This document shows positions 7,417 to 59,810 of a stretch of 64,000 bases of DNA, piece after piece. Position numbers and translations under genes: made by a program. Each line of letters opens with the position of its first letter. Position 1 is the first letter of the stretch. The notes beneath the pieces were generated by a model that did no database searches, had not been told where the DNA came from, and saw nothing but the letters and a program-made list of their open reading frames with translations. Origin of the DNA: an uncultured Actinomycetes bacterium (lineage in GTDB: Bacteria; Actinomycetota; Actinomycetes; Streptosporangiales; Streptosporangiaceae); the NCBI GenBank assembly GCA_963790065.1, contig CAWBNK010000028.1, positions 36,312-100,311 of the forward strand, written 5' to 3'.

Positions 7417-10899
<3,483 letters not shown>

Positions 10900-11018
10900 C
10901 AGGGGTCCTTCCGAACTTGTCGCGGAAATATCACCGCACGCACGCCAAACGCCCCGCGGCAAATGCCCCGTAGCGCGAGGTCGGAAACCGAGGACGTCAG
11001 AGTGCAGCGCAAACTAGC

Positions 11019-11048
11019 AGCATAGCCGTAAGGCACACTGCTTGTCAA
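11019..11048 (-). promoter_or_regulatory. Candidate rpoB promoter
   Basis: Minus strand reads TTGACA-N18-TATGCT, ~120 nt upstream of the rpoB start, in a locally AT-richer stretch. Confidence 0.45.
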
Positions 11049-11269
11049 CTATACGCTACTATGAGATTCACGGTTGCTCCGCAGCATCGCTCTTCGGCGG
11101 CCAAACGTCAAGTCCAAACCGGACACTCAGGGCAGATTGCTGGCGTGACAGAGACCACATGCGGTGTCAAGTGTAGGTTGTAACACCGCGGGGTAGGACT
11201 TTATTTCGCGCTTCCGCGCGATCATCGTGGGCGGCTCGCGCCGCCCCGTCCCGGTTTTTCACTTTTCTC

Positions 11270-11389
11270 CGCGTGTCACCGCAGAGCTTGCTTTGCGTGT
11301 CGCGGCAGGGCTGGCCCTGCGTGTCGCGGCAGGGCTTGTCCTGCGTGTCGCGGCAGGGCTTGCCCTGCGTGTCGCGGCGAAGCTTGCTC
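11270..11389. repeat. Tandem array of five 24-bp units carrying a 16-bp palindrome
   Basis: Units TGCGTGTCGCGGCAGGGCT(T/G)G(C/T)CC at 11294, 11318 and 11342, with degenerate copies at 11270 and 11366. Unit junctions create GCAGGGCTTGCCCTGC palindromes every 24 bp. Confidence 0.9.
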
Positions 11390-11415: not shown

Positions 11416-11460
11416 AGACCCGGCCTTCAAGCCACTGAGGTGACCTGAAGCCCGGGTCTC
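11416..11460 (-). terminator. Hairpin downstream of rplL (terminator or attenuator between rplL and rpoB)
   Basis: GAGACCCGGCCTTCA...TGAAGCCCGGGTCTC inverted repeat about 65 nt after the rplL stop. There is no clear U-tract, so it may be a partial terminator. Confidence 0.5.
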
Positions 11461-11526
11461 TCGTCGCGCGGCCCCGGCCTGAGAGCCGGGGACCGGGGAC
11501 CGGGGCCCGCCTAGCGCAGCCTGCGG

Positions 11527-11919
11527 CTACTTGACGGTGACGGTGGCGCCAGCGCCCTCCAGGGCCGCCCGCGCCTTGTCCGCGCTCTCCTTGTTGACCT
11601 TCTCCAGCACCGTCTTGGGCGCACCGTCGACCAGGTCCTTGGCCTCCTTCAGGCCCAGGCTGGTCAGGCTGCGCACCTCCTTGATGACCTGGATCTTCTT
11701 GTCGCCCGCGGCGTTCAGGATGACGTCGAACTCATCCTGCTCCTCGGCCTGCTCGGCCTCCCCGCCGCCGGCCCCGCCGGCCGCCGGAGCGGCCACGGCT
11801 ACCGGGGCAGCCGCCTTGACATCGAACGTCTCCTCGAACTGCTTGACGAACTCGGACAGCTCCAGGAGGGTCATCTCCTTGAAGGCGTCAAGCAGGTCGG
11901 CGCTACTCATCTTCGCCAT
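11527..11919 (-). CDS. rplL: 50S ribosomal protein L7/L12
   Basis: 130 aa: [34 protein letters not shown]...[33 protein letters not shown]. Confidence 0.98.
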
Positions 11920-11955
11920 GGTGGTGTATTCCTCGTTCCTTGAAAGTGGGTCTGG

Positions 11956-12621
11956 TCAGCCCTCGGCGGGCGTGTCATCGGCAGCGGGCGCGTCGTCCGC
12001 TTCGGCCGCGGGCGCGTCGTCCGCTTCGGCCGCGGGCGCGTTGTCCGCTTCGGCCACGGCTTGCGGCGCGGTCTCGGCGGCGGGAGCCGCCCCGGCCCCG
12101 GCCTCGGCCTCGCGCTTGGCGCGCAGTGCCTCGGCGAGCTGCGCCATCTGCACGGGCAGCGCGTTGAACGTGGCGGCCGCGCCGGCCAGCGACGCCTTCA
12201 TGGCGCCAGCCAGCTTGGCCAGCAGGACGTCACGCGGCTCCAGGTCGGCCAGCCTGATGATCTCCGCGGGGGAGATCGCCTGGCCGTCGAGCACGCCGCC
12301 CTTGATGACCAGCAGCGGGTGGGCCTTCGCGAAGTCGCGCAGGCCCTTGGCCGCCTCGACCACGTCGCCGTCGACGAACGCGACGGCCGACGGGCCGGTC
12401 AGCATCGCCGCCAGCTGGTCGGACAGTCCCGCCTCGGTGACCGCGATCTTGGTCAGCGTGTTCTTCACCACGGCGAACGTGGCGTTGTCCCCGAGTGACC
12501 TGCGCAGCTCGGCGAGCTGGGCCACGGTGAGTCCGCGGTACTCGGTGAGCACCGCGCCGGACGAGTCCCTGAACCGCCCGGTGAGCTCGGCGACCGCGGC
12601 TACCTTCTCGGCGTTAGGCAT
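11956..12621 (-). CDS. rplJ: 50S ribosomal protein L10 with an extended acidic C-terminal tail
   Basis: ATG at 12621 (RBS GAGAGGAGG) gives [44 protein letters not shown]... 221 aa. The tail contains three APAAEADD repeats. Confidence 0.95.
11984..12055. repeat. 3 x 24-bp tandem repeat inside the rplJ 3' end
   Basis: GCGGGCGCGT(C/T)GTCCGCTTCGGCC x3, encoding AEAD(D/N)APA octapeptides. Confidence 0.9.
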
Positions 12622-12760
12622 GTGCCTCCTCTCGGTTTGCGTAGCGATTGCATACCTGCCGGAGACACAAAAACAGCCCCGGCGCGAGGCGCACGGGGCT
12701 CTGCCAGCCAGCCTTCTCAAGAAGGCGAGCCGGTACAGCTCAGTTCACCTGCGCGGGATG
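12622..12760 (-). promoter_or_regulatory. rplJ 5' leader (L10-leader-like) with a terminator-like attenuator hairpin
   Basis: Minus strand AGCCCCG-N11-CGGGGCT is followed by GTTTTTGTGT (plus coordinates 12665-12700), directly upstream of the rplJ RBS. This position and architecture match autoregulatory L10 leaders. Confidence 0.5.
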
Positions 12761-12887
12761 TCCGGTCCGGATCTTGCGACCCGGGCCCGGAGCCTTCGGC
12801 CGCCGCGCGAGCGCGACAGCATCCAGCGGTCTTCGGCGTAAGTCAGCTTACTTGGTGCGCCACCTGCGGGCAAAACGATGGCGGCTT

Positions 12888-12940
12888 CATGATCGCGGGC
12901 AGTTCTGGTCGCTATGCGGTCCGAACTGCCCGCGATCATG
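12888..12940. repeat. Short, inverted copy of the CATGATCGCGGGCAGTT palindromic element core
   Basis: Perfect 18-bp inverted repeat CATGATCGCGGGCAGTTC / GAACTGCCCGCGATCATG with a 17-nt loop. The same core and a related loop occur at ~36100-36150 and ~52299-52349. Confidence 0.85.
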
Positions 12941-12971
12941 GCTCGAGGGGCTGAGGAAGCAGGGAACAGCA

Positions 12972-13022
12972 AAGATCGTGGCCGGAATTGGGCGATATGC
13001 GCCGCAATCTGGCCACGATCTT
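12972..13022 (-). terminator. Hairpin after rplA (candidate terminator)
   Basis: 12-bp stem AAGATCGTGGCC / GGCCACGATCTT, 15 nt after the rplA stop. Followed on the minus strand by TGCTGTTCCCTGCTTCC. Confidence 0.45.
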
Positions 13023-13036
13023 GGACAGGCGCGGGG

Positions 13037-13759
13037 TTACGCGGTGGCTTCCTCGAGCTCGTCGGCCAGGTTGCGGGTCTTGCTGGGGTCGACCGGGATG
13101 CCGGGGCCCATGGTGGTGGTGAAGGTGACCTTCCTCAGGTACCGGCCCTTGGCCGCGGCGGGCTTGAGCCTGATCACTTCGTCGATGGCGGCGGCGTAGT
13201 TCTCCAGCAGCGCGTTCGGCGCGAACGAGGCCTTGCCGATGATGAAGTGCAGGTTGCCGTGCCGGTCCACCCGGAACTCGATCTTGCCGCCCTTGATCTC
13301 GGTCACGGCCTTGGCCACGTCCGGGGTCACGGTGCCGGTCTTCGGGTTCGGCATCAGGCCGCGCGGGCCGAGCACCCGGCCGAGCCGGCCGACCTTGCCC
13401 ATCAGGTCCGGCGTGGCCACTACCGCGTCGAAGTCGAGGAACCCGCCCTGGATGCGCTCGATCAGGTCGTCGGAGCCGACGAAGTCCGCCCCGGCCGCGC
13501 GGGCCTCCTCGGCCCGATCGCCGGTGGCGAACACGAGCACCCGGGCCGTCTTGCCGGTGCCGTTCGGCAGGTTGACCGTGCCGCGGACCATCTGGTCCTG
13601 CTTGCGCGGGTCGACGCCGAGCCGCAGGGCCACCTCGACGGTGGGGTCGAACTTGGTCACCTGATTGGCCTTGGCGATCGCGACGGCCTCGGCCGGGGTG
13701 TACAGCCGGGCCCGGTCGACCTGCTCACTGGCCTCGCGGTAGGACTTGCTGCGCTTCAT
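13037..13759 (-). CDS. rplA: 50S ribosomal protein L1
   Basis: 240 aa: [31 protein letters not shown]...[19 protein letters not shown]...[15 protein letters not shown]. Confidence 0.98.
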
Positions 13760-49121: not shown

Positions 49122-51993
49122 TTACGACCTGTCTTCCAGGCTGTTTTCCAGGTTGTCTTCCAGGCGGGCGGCCAGCAGCTCGGCCAGGTGGGTGGCGCGG
49201 ACCTGAGCCAGCTGGTCGAGCTGGGTGCGGCAGGAGAACCCGTCGGCCAGCACGGTGGCGCCAGGCGGCGCGGCGCGGACGGCGGGCAGCAGGGCGGTCT
49301 CGGCCACGGCCCGGGACACGTCGTAGTGGCCGCGCTCGACGCCGAAGTTGCCCGCCAGCCCGCAGCAGCCGCCCACCGCGGTGACCTGGGCCCCGGCCCC
49401 GGCCAGCAGCGCGGCGTCGGCCTGCCAGCCCATGACCGCGTGGTGGTGGCAGTGCGGCTGGGCCACCGCGGACAGGCCGGACAGGTCGGGCGCCGACCAT
49501 CGCTCGGTCGCCGTGAGGAGCTCGGCCAGGGTCTTGATGGCCGAACGGACCTGCCAGGCCCGCGGGTCGTCAGGCAGCAGCTCGGCGGCGTCGGCGCGCA
49601 GCACGGCGGTACAGGAGGGTTCCAGCCCGACGATCGGGGTGCCAGCGTCCAGCGCGGGAGCCAGGGCGTTCAGGCTGCGCCGCAGCTGGCGGCGGGCGCC
49701 GTCCAGCTGGCCGGTGGAGATCCAGGTCAGGCCGCAGCAGGTGGGTTGTCCGGTGACCTCGACGGCATAGCCGGCCGCCTCGAGGACCTGGACGGCGGCC
49801 CGGCCGGTTTCGGGGGTGAAGTGGTCGGTGAAGGTGTCGACCCACAGCAGCACGGGGGTCTGGCCCTGGCCTTTCTGGTGCTGGTGCTGGGCGAACCAGT
49901 CGCGGAACGTCTGGGGGGCGAACTCGGGGAGCGGGCGGCGGGGGTCGATGCCGCCGAGTCGTTTGGCCAGGCCGGCCAGGGTTTGCTGGCGCAGCGCGGC
50001 GTTGGCCAGTTTCGGCGCGCGGGCGGCGAGCCGGGCCCAGCGGGGCAGCCAGCCCAGCGAGTAGTGGGCGGGCGGGCGGAGGCGGCGCCGGTACCGCTGG
50101 TAGAGCACCTCGGCCTTGTAGGTAGCCAGGTCCACCCCGGCCGGGCAGTCAGACGAGCAGCCCTTGCAGGACAGGCACAGGTCCAGCGACTCGTCCAGTT
50201 CTGGGGCGCGGAAGCTGCCGACCAGGGTGCCGTTGGCCAGCTCCTGCAGGACGCGGGCGCGGCCGCGGGTGGAATCCTTCTCGTCCCTGGTGGCCAGGTA
50301 GGACGGGCACATGACGCCGCCGGCGGCCGTGGTATCGGCCCGGCACTTGCCCACGCCGGTGCAGCGGTGCACCGCGACGGACAGGTCGCCGCGGTCCTGC
50401 GGGTAGGCGAACCCGAGGCCCTTGGTGATCGGCCGGGCCAGCGGCAGTCGCAGGTCGGCGTCGATGGGGGCCGGGTCGACCAGCACGCCGGGGTTGAGCA
50501 GGTTGCCCGGGTCGAAGATGGCCTTGACCGCGGCCATGACCTCGATAGCCTCGGGTGAGTACATGTAGGGCAGCAGCTCGCCGCGGGCCCGGCCGTCGCC
50601 GTGCTCGCCGGACATCGAGCCGCCGTACTGGCCGGCCAGCTGCGCCGCGGCCAGGGCGAACTCCCGGTACCGGCCGGGCGCGGTGGCCAGCGGGAAGTCG
50701 ATGCGGACGTGCACGCAGCCGTCGCCGAAGTGCCCGTACAGCAGGCCGTCCAGGTCGTGGCCGGCCAGCAGCGCGGTGAATTCTCTTAGGTATGAGCCCA
50801 GGTGGGCGGGCAGGACGGCGGAGTCCTCCCAGCCGGGCCAGGCCGGCGCGCCCGCCGGGGTGCGGCCGCCCAGGCCGGCGCCGTCCTCGCGGATGCGCCA
50901 CAGGGCCCGGGCCGGGGCGCCGGTGACGACGCTGGCGTCGAGGGCGCCGGAGTCCTTGATGAGCCGTTCGGCGGCCGGCCCGGGCCTCGGCCTCGGTGTC
51001 GCCCGCCGTCTCGGCGAAGATCCAGGCCTGGCCGCGCGGCAGGTCCGGGACGGCGGCGGCGCCGCGGCGGTTGCGTACCACGTCGACCAGCCGGGCGTCC
51101 ATCCCCTCCAGCGCCACCGGCCGGTGCGGCAGCAGGCCGGGCACGGCGTCCGCGGCCTCCGGCATGCCGGGGTAGCCGAGGACGGCGAGGGCCACGGCGT
51201 TCGGCGACCGGACCAGGCGCACGGTGGCGGCGGTGACGATGCCCAGGGTGCCTTCGCTGCCGGCCAGGAACCGGGCCAGGTCGGCGCCGTTCTCCGGCAG
51301 CAGGTGCTCCAGGCTGTAGCCGGACACCTGCCGGGTGAACCGGCCGAACTCGGTGCGGATCAGGGCCAGCCTGTCGTTGACCAGGCTGGCCAGGGCGGTG
51401 CCGATCGGCCCTGCTGTGTCTTTGGATGTGTCTTTGACTGTGTCTTTGGCTGTGTCTTTGCGGCTCGCTGGCAGCTGCTCACCGGCGGCGGTCAGCAGGT
51501 CCAGGCTGACTACGTTGTCGGCGGTGCGGCCGTAGCGCAGCGCCCGCGAGCCGCAGGCGTTGTTGCCGATCGAGCCGCCGATGCTGGCCCGGGCGTGCGA
51601 GGAGGGGTCGGGGCCGAACCGCAGCCCGTACTTCGTGGCGGCCGCGGTGATGTCATCCAGGATCGCGCCCGGTTCGGCGGTCGCGGTGCGAGCCTCGGCG
51701 TCGACGGCCAGCACCCGGTTGAGGTGGCGGGAGAAGTCCAGCACGATGCCGGGGCCGACCGAGTTGCCCGCGATGGAGGTGCCGCCGCCCCGGCTGGTGA
51801 CCGGCACTTGGTACTGTCGCGCCACGGCCAGCGCGGCGGCGGCCTCCTCGGCATGCCGGGGGAAGGCCACCACGGCGGGCACGACCCGGTAGTTGGAGGC
51901 GTCGGTGGCGTACTCCGCCCGCCGCCGCGCCGAGTCGTCGGCACTGGTCAGACCGGCGGCGCGCAGCGCGGCGGCCAGCTCCCGCGGCGGCAC
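49122..51993 (-). pseudogene. FAD-binding oxidase fused to an (Fe-S)/CCG-domain protein (GlcD/GlcF-like), interrupted by a 1-nt frameshift near 50975
   Basis: The N-part (GTG 51993) has VTSRGGGTSIAGNSVG and runs to AETAGDTEAEARA. The +1 frame continues AAERLIKDSGALDASVVTGAPARALWRIREDGAGL...GWEDSAV...YGHFGDGCVHVRIDFPL, then CxxCxxC clusters and CCG motifs. The total length fits a ~956-aa single protein. Confidence 0.65.
51415..51462. repeat. 4 x 12-bp tandem repeat inside the FAD-oxidase gene
   Basis: TGTGTCTTTG(GA/AC/GC/CG) x4, encoding KDTAKDTVKDTSKDTA. Confidence 0.9.
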
Positions 51994-52187: not shown

Positions 52188-52444
52188 TACGGGTGCGGCT
52201 CTTGCGGAGTGACTGCCCGGCGGCCAGGCCCCTGGAACCTCAGTCGTTGCTCCCGCCCCAGCCGCCGCGCTCTCAGCCCCGGGGCCTGTGCCGCTTGCAT
52301 GATCACGGGCAGTTTGAGCTAAATACCGACCAAAACTGCCCGCGATCATGAAGCCAGCCCCTTCCGGGCGTGATCATGAAGGACCGCCGCCGCGGCGCGC
52401 CCTCCGGGCAGGCTCAGCCTCACGCCACAAGAGCCGCACCCGTG
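52188..52444. repeat. MITE-like long palindromic element, copy B
   Basis: Terminal inverted repeats ACGGGTGCGGCTCTTG / CAAGAGCCGCACCCGT. Central hairpin CATGATCACGGGCAGTTTGAGCTAAATACCGACCAAAACTGCCCGCGATCATG. Same orientation and block order as copy A. Confidence 0.8.
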
Positions 52445-52446
52445 GT

Positions 52447-53892
52447 TTACCAGCCTCGGAACTGGCCATTGGCGGTCCAGAAGGCGGCGAGGGCGATCAC
52501 GACGGCCAGCAAGGCCGCAGCGGCCTGCAGCCGGCGGGCGGCCCGGCCTCCGGACCAGTGCAGGCCGGCGGTGACCGCCCGCCGGACCAGCCCGGTGATG
52601 ACATAGGCCGAGCCGGCCAGGGACACGCCCAGCAGGGCGGCGCCCACGGCGGCGACCGCGGCGGTTGCGTAGCGGTGGCCGCCAACGGCGGCGGTCATGA
52701 GGTGGGCCTGCACGCTGGCCGCGCGCCACAGGGAGCGGTCGATCGCGGGCAGGCGCAGCAACATGTATCCGAAGCCGGCCAGCAGCAGCGGGAGGACGCA
52801 CATCACCCAGCCGGTCACCACGATCCGGGCGTGCCGCCGCAGGCCGGCCACGCGCGGGTCCGGGCGCCCCCGGCGGGTGGCCCGGTTTGCGGCCCAGTCT
52901 GCGGCACTGCGCAGGATCGGCACGATGCGGGCGAACAGGTCCGGCACGCCGACCAGGTCGCTGAGGATGAAGTACCCGTCGAAGCGGACGAACGGCAGCA
53001 GCTGTTCCAGCATCTCCAGGTGCGTGACGGCGATGACCAGGAGCAGGATCTCGGACGAGGTGGCCGAGTAGACGGCCGCCAGGGCCAGCATGAAGATCAG
53101 GTTGAAGTACAGGCCGCCGAGGTCGGTGCGCAGCCGGCCAGCCCGGCTGAGCCGGTAGGAGTCGGTGACGTTGGTGAAGAACGCCGGCCACATCACGTAG
53201 ATGCCGACGCCGATCACGCCGGGCCGCGCGCCGCCGTAGCGGCAGCCGGCCGCGTGGCCGCACTCGTGGAACGCAGCGGAGGCCAGGGACAGGCCGATCA
53301 CGACGAGAAAGTCCACCGGGTTGTGCAGGACCTGCCGGATCCCCCCGCCCAGCCCATGCACGGCGAACAGCCAGTAGTCGACGGCCAGGACGCTGGCCAC
53401 CACGGCCACGATGACCGGCCACCGGAACAGCGGCCGCAGCAGCGTCCCGACCGCGTTGGACGCCCGCTCCGTGAGGAGCGTGCCCCGGGCCCGCAGCGCG
53501 AGCAGCGGGTTGGCCGTCGGCAGGCCGGGCTCCGGCAGGCCGGCCGGGACATCCGGCCCGGCCACGACGCCCAGCGGCAGCAGCTTGGTGGTGATGAGGT
53601 AGCGGACCTGGTCGGCGTTCAGCAGCCGGCCGAGGTCGGCGCTGACCTGCTGGGCGATGGCGACCGGGCCGCGGGTGCCGTCGATCCGGCAGGTGACCTG
53701 GTACAGCAGCGCGGACATCTGGATGACCTGGCCGTCGGCCCGGCGGACCAGGGAGGGCGGCTGGCTGTAGCCGGAATCCTGGTACTCGCCGAGCAGCTCG
53801 ACCCCGTCGGCCAGCCGGGGCAGCTCCACAGCAGCAGACGTGTCCGCGGCGGCCGGGAGCCCGCCGGCTTGGGCCTGCACGGTCAGGGTCAT
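52447..53892 (-). CDS. Polytopic membrane metalloprotease, M50/site-2-protease-like (HExxH...DG)
   Basis: 481 aa. A ~150-aa soluble N-domain (PRLADGVELLGEYQDSGYSQPPSLVRRADGQVIQMSALLY) is followed by TM segments carrying AAFHECGHAAG and VRFDGYFILSDL. RBS GAGGAG. Confidence 0.75.
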   Translation of the reverse strand: MTLTVQAQAGGLPAAADTSAAVELPRLADGVELLGEYQDSGYSQPPSLVRRADGQVIQMSALLYQVTCRIDGTRGPVAIAQQVSADLGRLLNADQVRYLITTKLLPLGVVAGPDVPAGLPEPGLPTANPLLALRARGTLLTERASNAVGTLLRPLFRWPVIVAVVASVLAVDYWLFAVHGLGGGIRQVLHNPVDFLVVIGLSLASAAFHECGHAAGCRYGGARPGVIGVGIYVMWPAFFTNVTDSYRLSRAGRLRTDLGGLYFNLIFMLALAAVYSATSSEILLLVIAVTHLEMLEQLLPFVRFDGYFILSDLVGVPDLFARIVPILRSAADWAANRATRRGRPDPRVAGLRRHARIVVTGWVMCVLPLLLAGFGYMLLRLPAIDRSLWRAASVQAHLMTAAVGGHRYATAAVAAVGAALLGVSLAGSAYVITGLVRRAVTAGLHWSGGRAARRLQAAAALLAVVIALAAFWTANGQFRGW

Positions 53893-53962
53893 CGCGGTCT
53901 GCTCCTCATCGCGCGTGTGCTCTGGGAAAGCGGCCCGGCCCGGGTGGGGGTTCCGGGCCGGG

Positions 53963-54004
53963 CAGCAAACGGAGGGGCCGCCCGTCAGGGTGGGCGGCCC
54001 CTCC
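53963..54004 (-). terminator. Strong hairpin between the peptide gene and the protease gene (terminator or attenuator)
   Basis: Minus strand GGAGGGGCCGCCC-ACCCTGA-CGGGCGGCCCCTCC is followed by GTTTGCTG, ~105 nt after the peptide stop and ~70 nt before the protease start. Confidence 0.6.
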
Positions 54005-54110
54005 TTGCCCGCTGCACGTCCCCCTCGGGTTGAAAATGCGCAGCGGACCGGCTGTGCGAACTATCCGATGCCGTGGCCGATGACAGTCATGGCGGACCGG
54101 GTCCGTGGTC

Positions 54111-54284
54111 TTACAGGCAGATGCCGATGTTGACGTTGATGCACACGCTGACGTCGAAGCACGGCGGCGGGCAGCACGGGTGGCACGGCTGGCACGGGGA
54201 GACGCAGAGCGTTTCCCGGCTGGGGAGCAGTTCGGCGCTCTCGAGGTCGAGGTCTTGCATCGTCACGGCGGTAGCGGTGGACAT
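54111..54284 (-). CDS. 57-aa leader plus Cys/Pro-rich core peptide (candidate RiPP/bacteriocin-like precursor)
   Basis: ATG at 54284 lies 5 nt after GAAGGAGG. MSTATAVTMQDLDLESAELLPSRETL-CVSPCQPCHPCCPPPCFDVSVCINVNIGICL. 53 of 57 codons end in G/C, which is native codon bias. The last 31 aa hold 8 Cys. Confidence 0.65.
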   Translation of the reverse strand: MSTATAVTMQDLDLESAELLPSRETLCVSPCQPCHPCCPPPCFDVSVCINVNIGICL

Positions 54285-54403
54285 GGTGCCTCCTTCAGGG
54301 ACGGTCTGCCTCCTGGCCAGGCATCCCGGGTCTGCCTGCGGTTCGGGGGCCGTTCGGGCCTTCGGTACCGCCCGGCATCGCTGTGGCGCCAGGCCACGGT
54401 TCT

Positions 54404-54449
54404 GATGTACGCTAATTGACGTACATCTTGTACGGTCACCACCGTACAA
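54404..54449. promoter_or_regulatory. Operator-like array of four TGTACG/CGTACA hexamers
   Basis: GATGTACG-N8-CGTACATC at 54404-54427 is immediately followed by TTGTACGG-N6-CCGTACAA at 54428-54449. The array lies in the divergent spacer between the peptide gene and the XRE gene. Confidence 0.55.
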
Positions 54450-54481
54450 CAAAACCGGGATTCAGTCAACGTTGAGGAACC

Positions 54482-54997
54482 GTGACTGAGCTCGTCCCAG
54501 GAAGACGGGTTAGGTTGGTGGCTATGACGGCGCACGCGACGGGAGACAGGCGAGACCGCCCTGATGAGCGTCCGCCGGCCGCCGCAGCAGCAGCGCCGGA
54601 GCAGATCATGAACCCGCTGCAGCGCCTGATCCAGCAGCGGCTGAGCGAGCGGGCCTGGTCCTACGGTGAGGTCGCCCGGCGGGGCGGACTGCCCCGGTCG
54701 ACCGTCTACACCCTGGCCACGACCCGGAACCTGGCCCGGCCGCCCCGTCCGGCCACCATCGACGCGCTGGCCAAGGGCCTCGACGTACCGGTCTCGGCGG
54801 TCCGCGCCGCCGCCGCCGAGTCCACCGGCCTGCACTACTACGACGACGGTCCGTCCGAGCGGAAAGGCCCGGCCGATCAGGAGCGGGAACTCCTGATCGC
54901 CAGCATCGACGAGCTGACACCCGAGGACCGGAAGCACGTGGCCGCGCTGGTCGAATCGCTGCGCAACCGGTCCACGCCGGGCCCAGCCGATCGCTAG
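54482..54997 (+). CDS. XRE-family HTH regulator
   Basis: HTH: LIQQRLSERAWSYGEVARRGGLPRSTVYTLATTRNLARPPRPATIDALAKGLDV. The start is either GTG 54482 or ATG 54608 (GGAG 8 nt upstream). Confidence 0.75.
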   Translation: MTELVPGRRVRLVAMTAHATGDRRDRPDERPPAAAAAAPEQIMNPLQRLIQQRLSERAWSYGEVARRGGLPRSTVYTLATTRNLARPPRPATIDALAKGLDVPVSAVRAAAAESTGLHYYDDGPSERKGPADQERELLIASIDELTPEDRKHVAALVESLRNRSTPGPADR

Positions 54998-55131
54998 CAC
55001 GCCCGCCGACGCGGCGGCCGTGGCCGGCCTTCCGTGGTGAAACCCGGGTTTCACCGCCGTGGAGCGGGCTGATAGCCGGGTTTCACCACCTTGGTCGGGT
55101 GCGACATCGCGAGTCATTACCGCAGGTACCT

Positions 55132-56508
55132 CTATTCCATCGGCCAGCTGGGGGGCACCCCCAGCTGTTCGGCCAGTTCTCCGTAGGAGCCCTCCGGCAG
55201 GACCAGGCGGGCGGCGCGCAGGACATTCCTGGGGTCCTCACCTGGTGGCCGCAGCACGTAGACCGTGTCGTCGCGCTTGTTGCAGGTCACGACCAGCCGG
55301 TCGTGGTCGGCCAGCACGATCGGCCAGCTGGCGGGCAGCCCCAGCTGCTCGGCCAGCGCCCGGTAGGGACCTTCGGGCAGCACCAGGCGGGCGACCCGCA
55401 AGATGGCCCGGGGTTCGGCGTCAGGCGGCCGTAGCACGTACACCGTGTCGTCTGACTGGCTGTAGGTGACGACGAGCCGGTCGTAATCGGCCAGGACCAC
55501 GTTGGCCTGCTCCGCGGCGGGCGGCGCGGAGGCCGGTTCCCGGCCGGGATCAGCCGTGCTGAGCCGGGTGGCCGCCGCGGCCTCGACTGCTTCGGCTGCT
55601 TCGGCGGCTTTGGCGGCCTGAGCTGCGCGCGTTGCCTGGGCTGCTTCCGCCGCCTGGGCTGCGTCGGTCGCCTGGGCTGCGTCGGTCGCCTGAGCCGTGT
55701 CGGCCGCTTGAGCCGTGTCGGGCGCCTGGGCTGTGTCGGGCGCCTGGGCTGTGTCGGCGGCCTGGGCGGCGTGCCGATGGCGGCGCCTGACCATGAGCAC
55801 CGGCTCGACCAGGAAGGCCAGGCCGATGATCAAGCCGGCCACCAGCAAGACCGTCTTCAGCCACTGCGGCATGCCAGTGGCGGCCGGAGCCGGTATGGGC
55901 GCCGGCGACGGACGGTGCTGGCTACCGGGCGGCGGCGAAGCCCGTGACGGCTGGGGCGGGCTAGGAGTTGACACCGGCGGCGATGCCACCGGCCGAGAGA
56001 TCACGAGCACGATGCCGGGACGGATCGTGTTCGGATCGGGACCGATGACCCGCCGGTTAGCCGCGTACAGCGCGGGCCAGCCGCCGCGCACGGCGAACCG
56101 CGCGGCGATGCCCGACAACGTATCCCCGGCCACCACCGTGTAGCGGGCCGGCATCTTCACGCCGGGCAGTACCAGGATGGTGCCAGGGCGGATCGTGTCC
56201 GGATCGGGGCCGATAACCGGCCGGTTGGCGGCATACAGCGCCGGCCAGCCGCCGCGCACGGAAAACCGCGCGGCGATGCTGGACAGCGTGTCGCCGTCTT
56301 GCACGACGTATCTCGTGCTGGGACTGGGCGCCGCGGCTGCTGCCGGGACGACGCTCAGCGCGCTGGTCAAGATGACCTCGCTAGTACTACCCGCCATGCG
56401 GGTGCTCGCTTGGGCGGGGCGGACGGATCCTCTCAGACCGACCGCCGCCAGGATGATCAGAACGCTCCAGGCGAGCACCACGCATGCGGACTTGGTCCAC
56501 ATACGCAC
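55132..56508 (-). CDS. Bitopic membrane protein: 2 x LysM (outside), hexapeptide repeats and 2 x unknown ~58-aa domain (inside)
   Basis: GTG at 56508 after GGAAGGAAAG. TM1, then LysM YVVQDGDTLSSIAARFSVRGGWPALYAANRPVIGPDPDTIRPGTILVLP and a second copy, a Pro-rich linker and TM2. AQAxDT repeats follow, then two copies of VLADxDRLVVTxxxxDDTVYVLRPPxxxPRxxLRxARLVLPEGxYxxLAEQLGxPxSWP. Confidence 0.8.
   Translation of the reverse strand: MRMWTKSACVVLAWSVLIILAAVGLRGSVRPAQASTRMAGSTSEVILTSALSVVPAAAAAPSPSTRYVVQDGDTLSSIAARFSVRGGWPALYAANRPVIGPDPDTIRPGTILVLPGVKMPARYTVVAGDTLSGIAARFAVRGGWPALYAANRRVIGPDPNTIRPGIVLVISRPVASPPVSTPSPPQPSRASPPPGSQHRPSPAPIPAPAATGMPQWLKTVLLVAGLIIGLAFLVEPVLMVRRRHRHAAQAADTAQAPDTAQAPDTAQAADTAQATDAAQATDAAQAAEAAQATRAAQAAKAAEAAEAVEAAAATRLSTADPGREPASAPPAAEQANVVLADYDRLVVTYSQSDDTVYVLRPPDAEPRAILRVARLVLPEGPYRALAEQLGLPASWPIVLADHDRLVVTCNKRDDTVYVLRPPGEDPRNVLRAARLVLPEGSYGELAEQLGVPPSWPME
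55651..55758. repeat. 6 x 18-bp tandem repeat (degenerate flanks to ~55585 and ~55776) inside the LysM-protein gene
   Basis: CGCCTGGGCTG(C/T)GTCGG(T/G)-type units, encoding AQA(P/A/T)D(T/A) hexapeptides. Confidence 0.85.
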
Positions 56509-56598: not shown

Positions 56599-58537
56599 TT
56601 ACGCGGGCGGTACCTCAGGGAGGTAGGCACGCCAGATAGGACGAGCGGCGGCGCGACGCGCCAGCCGCAGCAAGAGCAGACTCATCAGCGCGAACAGGGC
56701 GACCGCGAGGCCACCCTGCACTCCGCCGCCGTTGTTGCCGCCGCTGCTGCCCGAACCGCCGACGCCGTTCGCGCCGCCAGCGCCACCACCAGCGGCGGCG
56801 GGCAGTTGGGGAAGCCCGGGGGCAGGCGAGGCCGGCGCTTCGCCGCTGCCCGATCCCGGCGACCAGGCCGGCAGCGAGGAACCGCCAGAGCCAGGCGCGG
56901 CCGAAGCGGTGCTGGAACCGGCCGGAGCGGTGGAAGCGGCCGAGGTGCCGCCGGAGGTGGCGGGTACGCTTCCGGCTGAGAGCACCGCACTCAGACCCGT
57001 CAGGCTGGGACCGGACGGGTCCTGCGGACCGGCGGTCCCGAGGAGCGCGGACAGCACCGGGGCCAGCGCGCCCGTGACCGGGGCCAGCACATCGGTGACC
57101 GGGGCCAGTGCGCCCGTGACGGGGGCCAGCGCGCCGGTGACGGGGGCCAGTGCACCGGTGACCGGAGCCAGGGCATCCGTGACGGGAGCCAGCACATCGG
57201 TGACCGGAGCCAGCGCGCCCGTGATGGGGGCCAGCGCGCCGGCGACCGGGGCCACCACGGTGGACACGACCGGAGCCACGGCGGCGGTGACTGGGGCCAG
57301 CGCGCCGGCGACCGGGGCCACCACGGTGGACACGACCAGAGCCACGGCGGCGGTGACAGGGGCCAGCACGCCGGCGACAGGGGCTACTACGGTCGACACG
57401 ACCGGGGCCACCACGGTGGAGACGACCGGAGCCACGGCGGCGGTGACTGGGGCCAGCGCGCCGGCGACCGGGGCCACCACGGTGGACACGACCGGAGCCA
57501 CGGCGGCGGTGACTGGGGCTACCGCGCCGGTGACCGGGCTCAGTGCGCTGGCGACCGGAGCGGCGGCGGCGGAGACCACCGGGGTCAGCGTGCTGGTGAC
57601 GGTGGAGACCGGACCCAGACTGCTGGCGGTGGCGGCGACGTTCGAGATGGGCGAGAGCGTGACGGCCGAGGTGACCGGGGCCAGCGTCTCAGCAGGCGCG
57701 GCGAGCGCGCTGGTGGCGGTGGCAGCGGGCGCTGTGGCAGTGGTCGTGACCGGCGCCATGGCTGCGGCGGCCGTCGAGGTGACCGAGGTGACCGCCGACG
57801 TGACCGGGGCGACCGCCGAGGTGACCGGGGCGACCGCCGAGGTGACCGGGGTGACCGTCGACGTGACCGGGGCGACCGCCGAGGTGACCGGGGCGACCGA
57901 TGCTCGAGGTGACCGGGGCGACCGAGGTGACCGCTGACGTGACCGGTGCCGCTGCCGAGGTGACCGTCGACGTGACCGGTGCTGCGGCCGAGGTCACCGG
58001 GCTGGAAGCGGTGGTGACCGTAGCGGAACCGGTCGGCGACGAGGACGTCGTGGCCGAGGTGACCGGCGCCGTGGCGGGGGCGACGGCCGACGTGACGGTC
58101 GCGGTCGCCGACGTGGCTGGCGTGGTCGCTGATGTGGTCGGCGTGGGCGTCGATGCGGCGGTGGAAGTCGCGGCGCTGGTGGCGGAGGTGCTGGTGACTG
58201 ACGCCGAGGTAGCCGGGGCGACGGCCGACGTGACCGGCGCGGTTGCGGTCGCGACGGTCGAGGTGACAGTCGACGTGACCGAGCCGGAGCCGGTGGTCAG
58301 GCCGGGAACGGCCGGGACGGCCGCGGCGGTCGCGCTGCTCGTGCCGGAGCCGGGGACGGACGGCGCGGAGGTGGCCTTCGAAGTGGCAGACGCAATGGCC
58401 GAAGTGAGCTTTGACGTGGGCAAGGTGGCTGCTTGCGCCTGCCGCGAGGACAGTAGGAGGAGGACCAGAATCCCGGCAGCAGCGATCACGACTTGCACCA
58501 CCCGGAGGGCGATGCGTCGCACGATCGGCTGCGGCAT
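56599..58537 (-). pseudogene. Large Ala/Pro/Val/Thr/Ser-repeat surface protein gene (signal peptide ... C-terminal TM anchor), split by a frameshift near 57897-57910
   Basis: N-ORF (ATG 58537): MPQPIVRRIALRVVQVVIAAAGILVLLLLSSRQAQAA, then APVTS-type repeats. C-ORF frame: (S)VAPVTSAVAPVTS...APVVSTVVAPVAGALAPVTAAV... Gly-rich ...GGLAVALFALMSLLLLRLARRAAA. At the junction, GACCGATGCTCGAGGTGACC replaces the unit GACCGCCGAGGTGACC, a net +4 nt. Confidence 0.55.
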
Positions 58538-58757: not shown

Positions 58758-59810
58758 ATGGACAGGCGTCCCTTCGCGGGGCCGGCTCTCGTGACGGCAG
58801 CGGCCGATGCTGATCCGGTGACTCTCCTGGTGCTCGGCTGGCTCGCGACGAAGCGGTCAGCGAACACCCGTGCCGCTTACGCTCGTGATCTCGGCATCGC
58901 GCCGACCCGCCGGGCCAGCCGCGCGCCGGAGTGGCTGGCGTGGTGCCGGGAACAGGGGGTGCATCCGGTCACCGGCGTGACCGGATGGCACGTGACGCGG
59001 TACACCATGAAGTTGGAAGCCACGGGATTGTCCTCGGCGAGTGCGGCCCGCAAGCTGGCCGCCATCTCGAGCTGGTACGACTGGTTGACCCTACGTGGGC
59101 ATATCAGTGCGAGCCCCGCCACCGGCCTGGCCCGGCCCAGGCCCGACCCGGGTGCCCGGCCTGGGCCAGCCCTGACCCGGGAGCAGGCCCTCGCCCTGGT
59201 CTACGCGGCCGACACCGCGCCCGGTTCGCAGCGGGCCCGCACCGCAGCCGTGATCGCGGTCCTGGTCTTCACCGGCGTCCGGGTCGGCGAGGTGATCGGC
59301 GCGGACGTCGCCGACCTCGGCACCGACCGAGGGCACCGGGTGCTGTGGGTCACGCGCTCTGACGGCCAGCGCGAGGGCCTCATGCTCCCCGGCGCGGCCG
59401 CTTCACGGATCGACGCCTACCTCGCTGAGCGAGCCGACCTGGCCGACGGGTCGGTGTTGTTCGCCTCACGGACCGGGGGTCGGCTGTTCGCTGCCGACGT
59501 GGGACGATCCGTACGCCGCCTGGCCGAGCGAGCCAGGCTGCCCGCCGACCTGATCCGCCGGCTGGGACCGCGGCTGATCCGGCGCTCGTTCGCGGCCCTG
59601 TACCTCGAGGCCGGCGGATCGCTCCGCGGCCTGCAGGGCGCCATGGGGCACGTCGACCCGCGCACCACCCGGCGATACGACCGGGCCGGGCCCAGGCCCG
59701 TCATTCACCCGGCCCGGCCGCAGCGCGAGCACTCGCCGGGTGCGGCGCAGCGGCCGGGAAGCAGGCCGCACTGCCGGGCTCGCGGGCCACACCGGCCGGC
59801 TGCGCCCTAG
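58758..59810 (+). CDS. Tyrosine recombinase / phage-integrase-family protein with atypical box II
   Basis: SAM-like N-domain: NTRAAYARDLG...KLAAISSWYDWL. Box I: VLVFTGVRVGEV. Box II reads PRLIRRSFAALYLEAGGSLRGLQGAMGHVDPRTTRRYDR, i.e. the Arg and Tyr are kept but both canonical His are Arg. An AT-rich upstream region precedes it. Confidence 0.75.
   Translation: MDRRPFAGPALVTAAADADPVTLLVLGWLATKRSANTRAAYARDLGIAPTRRASRAPEWLAWCREQGVHPVTGVTGWHVTRYTMKLEATGLSSASAARKLAAISSWYDWLTLRGHISASPATGLARPRPDPGARPGPALTREQALALVYAADTAPGSQRARTAAVIAVLVFTGVRVGEVIGADVADLGTDRGHRVLWVTRSDGQREGLMLPGAAASRIDAYLAERADLADGSVLFASRTGGRLFAADVGRSVRRLAERARLPADLIRRLGPRLIRRSFAALYLEAGGSLRGLQGAMGHVDPRTTRRYDRAGPRPVIHPARPQREHSPGAAQRPGSRPHCRARGPHRPAAP

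Follow-up and report, generated by a model that had tools for sequence, protein, structure and literature searches.

The subject of this analysis is a small peptide gene and the intramembrane protease gene that follows it, both on the minus strand of a 64,000-nucleotide stretch of contig CAWBNK010000028.1 (assembly GCA_963790065.1) from an uncultured bacterium of the Streptosporangiaceae; the whole stretch is called the window here, and all positions are counted in it. The host DNA is that of a high-G+C actinomycete, and since the first 16 kb hold the fusA-rpsG-rpsL-rpoC-rpoB-rplL-rplJ-rplA-rplK-nusG region, the context is chromosomal. The two genes and a divergent regulator probably form a self-contained module for making and maturing a peptide, and its features are the following (ORF, open reading frame; RRE, recognition element of RiPPs, which are peptides made on the ribosome and modified after translation; AF2, AlphaFold2; HTH, helix-turn-helix).

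54111-54284, minus strand: precursor peptide gene, 57 aa (ORF; stop codon 54111-54113)
54207-54284, minus strand: leader-coding part, aa 1-26, MSTATAVTMQDLDLESAELLPSRETL (17 invariant columns in alignment A1)
54114-54206, minus strand: core-coding part, aa 27-57, CVSPCQPCHPCCPPPCFDVSVCINVNIGICL (Cys/Pro-rich head, alternating hydrophobic tail)
54289-54295, minus strand: ribosome-binding site AAGGAGG, 4 nt 5' of the ATG (read from the sequence)
53893-54110, minus strand: structured peptide-protease spacer with three hairpins (RNA fold)
53971-54004, minus strand: main terminator- or attenuator-like hairpin, GGAGGGGCCGCCC-loop-GGGCGGCCCCUCC, then GUUUG (fold and conservation)
52447-53892, minus strand: intramembrane zinc metalloprotease, 481 aa, with a leader-binding-like N-terminal domain (NCBIfam, AF2, Foldseek)
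53581-53817, minus strand: predicted RRE/PqqD-like domain of the protease, aa 26-104 (AF2 model and Foldseek)
53254-53268, minus strand: HECGH motif, aa 209-213, in a membrane helix (read from the sequence)
52972-53004, minus strand: QLLPFVRFDGY, aa 297-307, second site-2-protease signature (read from the sequence)
54406-54425: operator palindrome 1, TGTACG-N8-CGTACA (motif count and conservation)
54429-54448: operator palindrome 2, TGTACG-N8-CGTACA, TTGTACGGT-N4-ACCGTACAA (motif count and conservation)
54441-54446: possible -10 element TACGGT, overlapped by palindrome 2
54464-54469, minus strand: possible -35 element TTGACT of the peptide promoter (read from the sequence)
54482-54997, plus strand: divergent HTH regulator gene, 171 aa in its longest ORF (other possible starts 54524 and 54608; HTH around aa 48-106)

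The peptide translated from 54111-54284, MSTATAVTMQDLDLESAELLPSRETL followed by CVSPCQPCHPCCPPPCFDVSVCINVNIGICL, has the marks of an ordinary gene of this genome, and the near-ideal ribosome-binding site and native codon bias noticed in a preliminary description of the window hold: the G+C content by codon position is 0.55/0.50/0.91, typical of this genome's genes, and aaggagg precedes the ATG at nearly all related loci too. A protein search gave 28 homologues, near-invariant over positions 6-26 and unalignable past RETL, and a profile search of 1.84 billion representative proteins returned 278 clusters at E <= 1e-3, of which 88 reach E <= 1e-10, with M(Q/E)(D/E)LELExAELLPxRETL in nearly all of the 147 newly returned sequences that were read, ahead of very different cores. 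For every one of the invariant residues L, E, L, L, P, R, E, T and L, the 74 genomic copies use two to four synonymous codons (the final leader Leu as CTC 36 times and as CTG 34 times), and pairwise codon differences number 13104 synonymous versus 7671 non-synonymous; invariant residues over such synonymous changes mean that selection acts on the protein and not on the DNA, so that conservation at the amino-acid level, at issue from the start, is established. Between genome pairs, identity ranges over 0.73-0.96 for the leader, 0.33-0.75 for the core and 0.62-0.93 for the protease: pairs with proteases 70-75 % identical have leaders 79 % and cores 33 % identical, and between the window and locus L007 the values are 90 % for the proteases, 88 % for the leaders and 52 % for the cores. 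Judged by its conservation, the small ORF is a real gene, translated and with the leader-core architecture first proposed for it, a near-invariant leader of 26 aa before a variable core. Pfam and NCBIfam assigned no family to the peptide or to five of its relatives, and none of the NCBIfam peptide models matched at E <= 1, in keeping with the earlier remark that the peptide could not be matched to a described RiPP or metallothionein family. Two contigs with a transcript-like appearance (P0001, 1424 nt, and P0008, 527 nt) turned out to be short contigs and are uninformative on expression.

The proposal had been made to depend on homologous peptide-protease pairs in other genomes, and these are common. 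A scan with the protease, at one genome per species, found 214 relatives, and among the 80 best loci, used for the pairing, 75 have a leader-bearing ORF 100-400 nt upstream of the protease gene; the five exceptions are a contig cut at that point and four loci outside the Trebonia-like group. The hosts of 76/80 loci are metagenome-assembled genomes (MAGs) that carry the label Streptosporangiaceae, Trebonia or uncultured Actinomycetes/Actinomycetota, along with Trebonia kvetii 15TR583, which is cultured, while the remaining four are MAGs of Gaiellales, Rubrobacteraceae and Solirubrobacterales. Extra precursor genes stand upstream of the protease in L014 and L023, and some genomes have two or three. 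Precursor genes were also observed downstream of the protease (L041, 4467-4634; L044, 11462-11653; L048, 5592-5979; L068, 11457-11579), where the leader is extended at its N-terminus (…APAVTAQDLELEHAELLPARETL) and the cores are short and rich in Pro and Tyr, e.g. MVGPLYPRYYNPGGPMHHYPGPVHATFA. The whole locus is present in two copies on different contigs in the MAG that holds L026 and L027 and in the one that holds L014 and L034.

The protease had been likened to YydH for its HECGH and FDGYF motifs. Both are in place (FDGYF within QLLPFVRFDGYF, aa 297-308), and the NCBIfam YydH/LiaK model (NF058609) does match, at E 2.5e-11 and 43.7 bits (cut-off 225), over residues 193-313 only for a model of 246 positions, though the closest curated relative is the daptide peptidase, daptide_HExxH (NF041824), with E 1e-25 and 90.7 bits (cut-off 300) over residues 46-400. 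The homologues of T. kvetii and of Thermoleophilia reach 97-111 bits against the same daptide model, and by these scores the protease is homologous to the daptide equivalog but outside it. In an alignment of 67 protease sequences spanning both branches (A3), H209, E210, G212 and H213 are invariant, as are Q297, P300, R303, D305, G306 and Y307; from what is generally known of the M50 family, we take Q-x2-P-x4-D-G to be the second site-2-protease signature and Asp305 the third zinc ligand. By these residues, the protein is a site-2-protease-type intramembrane zinc protease.

An AF2 model built on A3 (mean predicted local distance difference test, pLDDT, 82.4; predicted template modelling score, pTM, 0.73) superseded an earlier run on a shallow alignment of 10 sequences (pLDDT 44.8), which was usable for the N-terminal domain only. 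Some 145 residues lie ahead of the first membrane helix, about the length of the 150-aa cytoplasmic domain already described, which can now be given a more specific shape: strands at 32-36, 47-50 and 56-59 are followed by helices at 61-69, 76-87 and 93-104 (pLDDT 84-95), and then by a polytopic helical domain with HExxH inside the helix 192-219 and a short hairpin at 227-240. Foldseek against the Protein Data Bank (PDB) matched the model to the site-2 protease of M. jannaschii (3b4r_A, probability 0.92, template modelling score normalized to the target, TM(target), 0.45, 195 columns, E 0.36), to the RRE of the lasso-peptide TbiB1-leader complex (5v1u_B, probability 0.95, TM(target) 0.59, root-mean-square deviation 3.3) and to PqqD (5sxy, probability 0.94, TM(target) 0.64, root-mean-square deviation 2.8), the last two at E 0.6-1.0; E-values are weak throughout (0.3-1.0) because each match spans just part of a two-domain query. 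The cytoplasmic N-terminus is therefore predicted, from the model, to fold like an RRE. A PDB sequence search with the protease profile gave only spurious matches to G-protein-coupled receptors.

The 218-nt spacer between the two genes folds at -127.5 kcal/mol (z = -4.5; 0/200 shuffles as stable), and at its centre is a hairpin with a 13-bp G+C stem (53971-54004). A counterpart of this hairpin stands after the peptide stop codon in 59/59 loci analysed, with a median best local energy of -40.8 kcal/mol and none weaker than -33, against medians of -27 to -30 kcal/mol for control stretches of equal length from the same loci; the stem GGGCCGCCCG is largely conserved and the loops vary, with paired changes in some loci, e.g. 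GCCGTCCGG/CCGGACGGC. The attenuator hairpin of the preliminary description is in this way borne out as a structure, and termination would be its putative action, partial termination being what hairpins of this kind usually bring about behind precursor genes. A consensus terminator scan misses it because it has at most a short U run, and Rfam returned only sub-threshold chance matches for 52200-55200.

Upstream of the peptide gene, TGTACG-N8-CGTACA occurs twice in the 64 kb, both times between the peptide and HTH genes, against 0.05 expected, and the tailored operator suspected there is well founded. The pattern GTAC-N10-GTAC is present in 75/85 loci, as one or two copies that nearly always lie directly upstream of the peptide gene, and the roughly 20 kb scanned per locus contain hardly any others. 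In many of these loci, the window included, ttgact recurs some 17 nt upstream of the first palindrome. The overlap of a palindrome with the presumed -10 element TACGGT would point to repression. As to the regulator, the divergent HTH gene is real but its assignment to the XRE family is tentative, the Pfam matches (HTH_31, E 1.7e-4; HTH_3, E 4e-3) lying below cut-offs and a match to SinR having an E of 0.6. Overall, ORF, hairpin and operator are conserved in about 75 related genomes. The 5' untranslated region of the peptide gene, of about 150 nt (54296-54400, minus strand, and the same place in L002-L083), was seen to contain conserved hairpins, e.g. GGCCTGGCGCCACAG…GCCGGGC; it is much shorter in a sub-clade with L039, L043, L046, L054-L058 and others, where the operator is 40-90 nt from the ATG.

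The core of the window has the Cys pattern originally read from it, C-x3-C-x2-C-x2-CC-x3-C-x5-C-x7-C, with 8 Cys, one His and 6 Pro in 31 residues; the seventh Pro once counted there belongs to the leader. Its tail, FDVSVCINVNIGICL, alternates in a strand-like manner. Such Cys/Pro cores form a subfamily with conserved Cys positions and the tail F-D-[IVL]-S-V-C-[IV]-x-[IV]…C-L (P0001-P0012, L007, L008, L052, L061, L068 and L073), but this is a minority, and the initial emphasis on Cys and Pro, with disulfide or metal chemistry, fits only that minority: most members with the same leader and protease have Gly/Ser/Asn-rich cores with just 1-3 Cys. Over 81 cores, Gly, Ser and Asn together account for 43 % of the residues (16, 14 and 13 %) and charge is almost lacking (K+R 2.0 %, D+E 1.7 %); a Cys stands no more than 6 residues past RETL in 76, 36 cores begin with Cys and 28 with Trp, and the end residue is Leu in 58, Trp or Phe in 10 more and Thr in none. 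The commonest core type (…FTQVGYGNTAQSGLLNVAVANGSLNNILSLGSGNIL) is common to about 35 species. None of 22 cores of this dominant type has a Pfam match at E <= 10, nor have the full-length peptides. A likeness of the dominant core to curlin repeats, seen by eye (Q-x-G-x-G-N-x-A), and a likeness to chaplins were unsupported by Pfam or PDB profile searches, the best PDB matches being fungal hydrophobins at an insignificant E of 0.65.

The gene neighbourhood was analysed at 82 loci, with all plausible ORFs up to 10 kb to each side grouped into clusters. The widely common families are the protease (81), the HTH regulator (at least 62), a protein with LysM domains (at least 51) and the peptide (51, a count that reflects a 70-aa ORF filter, the scan with the leader motif giving the 75/80 stated above). 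No tailoring enzyme is conserved within this range. Downstream genes for a short-chain dehydrogenase/reductase (35 loci) and a major facilitator superfamily protein (31 loci) represent sub-clade synteny, and both are absent from the window. Two features of the window flank the module on the regulator's side:

55132-56508, minus strand: LysM membrane protein, syntenic neighbour and possible accessory part (Pfam LysM, E 1.8e-17)
58758-59810, plus strand: tyrosine recombinase/integrase, bordering the module

As had been remarked for the region up to the integrase, itself placed correctly at 58.8 kb, no LanB/C/M/KC, YcaO, radical-SAM, ATP-grasp or ATP-binding cassette (ABC) exporter gene lies between 44.5 and 63 kb of the window. 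The genes that do are those of an arginase, a permease, a cupin-HTH protein, an alpha/beta hydrolase, a frameshifted FAD/FeS oxidase, the LysM protein, Ala/Thr-rich repetitive ORFs, the integrase, two luciferase-like monooxygenases and an acyl-CoA dehydrogenase. An integrase beside the module is common to only about 6 related loci, L001 included; in general, therefore, the module does not belong to a mobile element, and the integrase is a feature of the window's sub-lineage, not of the peptide-protease system. In T. kvetii 15TR583 (L065, 9487-13500), which has the peptide gene at 9552-9791 and the protease gene at 9881-11362, the order is changed, the genes for the HTH regulator (11451-11930) and the LysM protein (12022-13500) lying downstream of the protease and not upstream, with the tandem GTAC-N10-GTAC operator (9487-9527) still ahead of the peptide gene. 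The HTH gene is thus still adjacent to the pair after rearrangement, there and in L039, and in T. kvetii the LysM gene was relocated together with it; the LysM protein may be an accessory part of the module, or its link may be plain synteny.

The relatives in Thermoleophilia differ in their precursors. Two to four tandem precursor genes are found in L081 (1645-2520, Gaiellaceae), L084 (9222-9909, Gaiellales) and L085 (9368-9826, Solirubrobacterales), with a related leader, …LAGEELPERAAMS, i.e. (S/T)REELNxLAGEELPERAAMS, and a conserved core, LINANVAAPVNAAVAANVLSD…Q(S/T)N. The Gaiellales/Solirubrobacterales branch of the protease is large, with 5471 matches at E <= 1e-10 among 8000 metagenome candidates scored. 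We also observed that the proteases of these three loci are 580-700 aa long, with Thr/Pro-rich or Ser/Gly/Ala-rich C-terminal tails, and that a secreted protein with two CxxC motifs neighbours those of L084 and L085.

Among characterized systems, daptides are the closest. Their protease (MpaP/DapP) is an RRE fused N-terminally to an intramembrane site-2 protease, and their leaders carry the motif ELExMEAP (PMC10036551). Besides the NF041824 match, which spans the N-terminal domain and the membrane core, the likeness extends to the order of the parts, an RRE-like domain and then an HExxH membrane protease, and to short precursor genes (MpaA in daptides) that adjoin the protease, sometimes several of them. 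ELExMEAP and the (D/E)LELExAELLP of the present leader are both acidic and end in Pro, a similarity seen by eye only, with one residue more here. An evolutionary relationship links the system to the daptide leader/RRE-protease pair, but a daptide it is not: the protease misses the equivalog cut-off; the invariant C-terminal Thr of daptide precursors (PMC10036551) ends none of the 81 cores; the branched-chain aliphatic-rich cores of daptides have Gly/Ser/Asn- or Cys/Pro-rich counterparts; the genes for the DUF-RRE/alcohol dehydrogenase, the pyridoxal phosphate (PLP)-dependent aminotransferase, the methyltransferase and the ABC transporter were not among the families common to the 10-kb flanks of the 82 loci, nor were they found in the window between 44.5 and 63 kb; and an HTH gene with its operator belongs to the module here. 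The DLDLE of the leader had earlier been taken as a hint of the FxLD box of class I lanthipeptides, a reading we reject: DLDLE/DLELE has no Phe, neither the window flank nor the common neighbourhood has LanB/C, and the daptide ELExMEAP is closer.

In the epipeptide system EpeX/EpeP (YydF/YydH) and the LiaK family, too, a membrane metalloprotease matures a small leader-bearing peptide, and the YydH/LiaK match lies over the catalytic core. EpeP, an M50 protease, has been proposed to combine cleavage of its epipeptide with export (PMC10885120), and such cleavage plus export would explain the missing exporter here. Unlike that system, the present one has no radical-SAM epimerase or ABC genes, and its protease adds the RRE-like N-terminal domain and extra C-terminal helices; with the NF058609 cut-off missed and no radical-SAM gene nearby, we discard an epipeptide system. 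In TMcins, TmcP (DUF3267), an HExxH protease of the site-2 protease clan, removes the leader inside the membrane, and the only other modification is disulfide formation (PMC13252029); TmcP, however, belongs to PF11667, has four helices and has no RRE described (PMC13252029). The TMcin precursor contains a transmembrane helix, and its cluster, plasmid-borne in a Firmicute host, has DsbA-like, ABC and escort genes. Our search of the literature found neither this leader sequence nor a stand-alone system of RRE and site-2 protease beyond the daptide papers, and nothing on RiPPs or biosynthetic gene clusters of Trebonia/Treboniaceae.

Taking these results together, we think it probable that the locus is a self-contained module of precursor and leader peptidase, under control of a repressor, that releases an uncharged, Cys-headed and Leu-tailed peptide at the membrane. 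The RRE-like domain would bind the acidic helix-Pro segment (D/E)LELExAELLP of the leader, and this binding would place the invariant SRETL spacer at the membrane-embedded HExxH/Asp305 site, near the cytoplasmic face, for cleavage at or just past RETL. The nearly uncharged core, with its N-proximal Cys and its hydrophobic C-terminus, usually Leu, would then pass into or across the membrane, the protease possibly doubling as exporter as proposed for EpeP. The divergent HTH protein would bind the two tandem palindromes overlapping the peptide promoter, and at the hairpin past the peptide gene most transcripts would stop, a minority reading through into the protease gene. Since daptide chemistry is missing, the product would be unmodified or modified only at Cys, and cleavage and export by EpeP, together with intramembrane leader removal by TmcP, make a module without transporter plausible. 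A broader version, which we put forward tentatively as a possibility well short of an expectation, is that a lineage-wide system has no dedicated enzyme other than the RRE-protease fusion, which would recognize a universal leader, cut it off in the membrane and itself deliver the product, with cores that are freely exchangeable, unmodified or modified at Cys only and serve envelope self-assembly or signalling, and that this extends, with tandem precursors, to the thousands of homologues in Gaiellales and Solirubrobacterales.

Several points weigh against a self-contained module. The NCBIfam scores of the protease are far under the family cut-offs, the Foldseek E-values are weak, and in a Pfam scan, which returned nothing, PqqD and Peptidase_M50 fail to match it. 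The conserved module has neither exporter nor immunity gene in the neighbourhoods compared, and their scope of 10 kb each side leaves room for tailoring enzymes elsewhere in the genome. The consensus scans found neither a canonical sigma-70 promoter nor a U-tract terminator, the HTH protein is short (129-171 aa) and weakly assigned to a family, and leader binding, the cleavage site, export and regulation are all steps that we infer.

The alternative that survives best is a true multi-step RiPP pathway, in which the leader would also recruit tailoring enzymes encoded elsewhere, e.g. Cys-directed ones, and the protease would perform the last step only. The Cys found so regularly just past RETL hints at a chemical handle that has been conserved, modified peptides typically follow the RRE-type leader logic, and daptide clusters show several enzymes using one leader, all of which, with a survey that reached just 10 kb each side per locus, gives this explanation some substance; yet no tailoring gene is conserved in those neighbourhoods or present in the surveyed part of the window, the composition of the locus is kept after rearrangement in T. 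kvetii, and, the N-proximal Cys apart, the cores are too diverse for most site-specific enzymes. We consider it a serious but rather unlikely account.

What the released peptide does is a separate matter, and we regard bacteriocin-like, signalling and envelope or self-assembly roles as comparably likely, each of them improbable when taken singly. An antimicrobial used in competition, like the products of the closest characterized relatives, would agree with the membrane-active antimicrobials made by related protease systems (the daptide hominicin, the epipeptide EpeX and TMcin), with the hypervariable cores and with the several precursor genes of some loci, but the module has no conserved immunity or ABC gene, its chromosomal position is conserved in essentially every related genome and not patchy, and the cores have none of the cationic charge common in such peptides. 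This role is unlikely on balance.

The core might instead be a pheromone sensed directly or indirectly through the HTH regulator, its variants corresponding to pherotypes. In the Rgg/SHP and enterococcal pheromone systems a small peptide gene and the gene of an HTH regulator are divergent and the peptide is matured by the M50 protease Eep, and variable cores beside a conserved processing part recall pherotype systems in general. The HTH gene here adjoins the peptide gene, has tandem operators at its promoter and keeps this linkage through rearrangement, and the locus is present throughout the family, as expected of a chromosomal trait. The protease, however, is encoded in the locus and has an RRE-like domain, the leader is of an acidic cytoplasmic type and not signal-like and hydrophobic, and the regulator, at 129-171 aa, is too short for an Rgg-type peptide-binding domain and shows no recognizable one. 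Moreover, the module has no oligopeptide importer or sensor kinase, uncharged cores of 40-55 residues far exceed known pheromones in length, and one core type in about 35 species goes against strict pherotype divergence; we hold a signalling role to be fairly improbable.

An envelope role, as a surface-active, amyloid-like self-assembling peptide with a morphogenetic function like that of chaplins or SapB, acting with the LysM and Ala/Thr-rich surface proteins, is in our judgement equally hard to favour. It would suit nearly uncharged, Gly/Ser/Asn-rich cores with alternating hydrophobic residues and a hydrophobic end, the strand-like tail of the window core, a cell-wall-binding LysM protein that is widely syntenic and moves with the module in T. 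kvetii, and a trait fixed in the chromosome across the family. Against it are the lack of detectable homology to the chaplin, curlin and hydrophobin families in the Pfam and PDB searches, the wholesale replacement of cores between close relatives, which is unusual for a structural protein, and a LysM link that may be plain synteny.

A metal-binding, metallothionein-like product, to which the 8 Cys and one His of the window core lend some colour, is very improbable and is rejected as an explanation of the family, because most members with the same leader and protease are Cys-poor, Pfam and NCBIfam give no match and the flanks contain no metal-resistance genes. That the small ORF is a mere regulatory upstream ORF or a chance ORF with a functionless peptide, short as it is and placed before a structured spacer and the protease gene, is hardly credible in view of the purifying selection on the leader, the strong ribosome-binding site and third-position G+C of 0.91, the extra copies downstream of the protease in some loci and the conserved Cys positions of the Cys/Pro subfamily.

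Some observations concern the surroundings of the module. Directly below the protease stop codon, a less G+C-rich spacer contains an 18-nt inverted repeat, CATGATCACGGGCAGTTT at 52298-52315 and AAACTGCCCGCGATCATG at 52333-52350, with a third element, CGTGATCATG, at 52369-52378; these repeats may be another operator or a terminator. A gene for a FAD-binding/4Fe-4S/CCG oxidase (GlcD/GlcF-like) is split over two frames (49122-51993, minus strand), the ORF 50149-51993 having a proper N-terminal FAD domain before it runs out of frame and the ORF 49122-50714 being the C-terminal part; the gene is intact in the close relative L001 (a 977-aa ORF), and the split is a frameshift, a pseudogene or an assembly error. 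On the other side, the two LysM domains of the LysM protein (55132-56508) are accompanied by a Pro-rich linker, a membrane helix, AQAxDT-type Ala-rich repeats and an unannotated domain of some 60 aa that is present in duplicate (VLADxDRLVVT…DDTVYVLRPP…LVLPEGxYxxLAEQLGxPxSWP). Two overlapping Ala/Thr/Val/Pro-rich repetitive ORFs (282 and 386 aa; 56599-58537, minus strand) come after it, with a signal-like N-terminus, a C-terminal membrane helix and long mirror ORFs on the opposite strand; they have no Pfam or NCBIfam match and correspond to one 609-aa gene in L001, and they are probably a surface protein, perhaps frameshifted in the window.

In its working the module would resemble the last maturation step of daptides, epipeptides or TMcins, and this logic is itself not new. 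New are the stand-alone form, the leader family and regulator of its own, the breadth of distribution over an entire actinomycete family and a large branch in Thermoleophilia, the extreme plasticity of the cores and their odd composition. Maturation by a recognition domain joined to an intramembrane protease has so far been known from daptides, as the last step of a multi-enzyme pathway, and here the pair stands alone, fixed in the chromosome of mostly uncultured Trebonia-like soil actinomycetes with hundreds of different cores, and with relatives widespread in Thermoleophilia. Since the locus is present in the cultured T. kvetii 15TR583, the system is directly testable in that organism. If the protease alone matures and exports the peptide, it would represent a new and very simple route to secreted peptides in Actinomycetota, a portable leader/protease pair that tolerates almost any core would be useful for peptide engineering, and the role that these uncharged Gly/Ser/Asn- or Cys/Pro-rich peptides play in soil bacteria would become a question to pursue. 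If the broader version put forward above is true, the locus would be the minimal, stand-alone form of the pair that daptide clusters join with tailoring enzymes, and the source of a new leader-dependent class of actinobacterial peptides.

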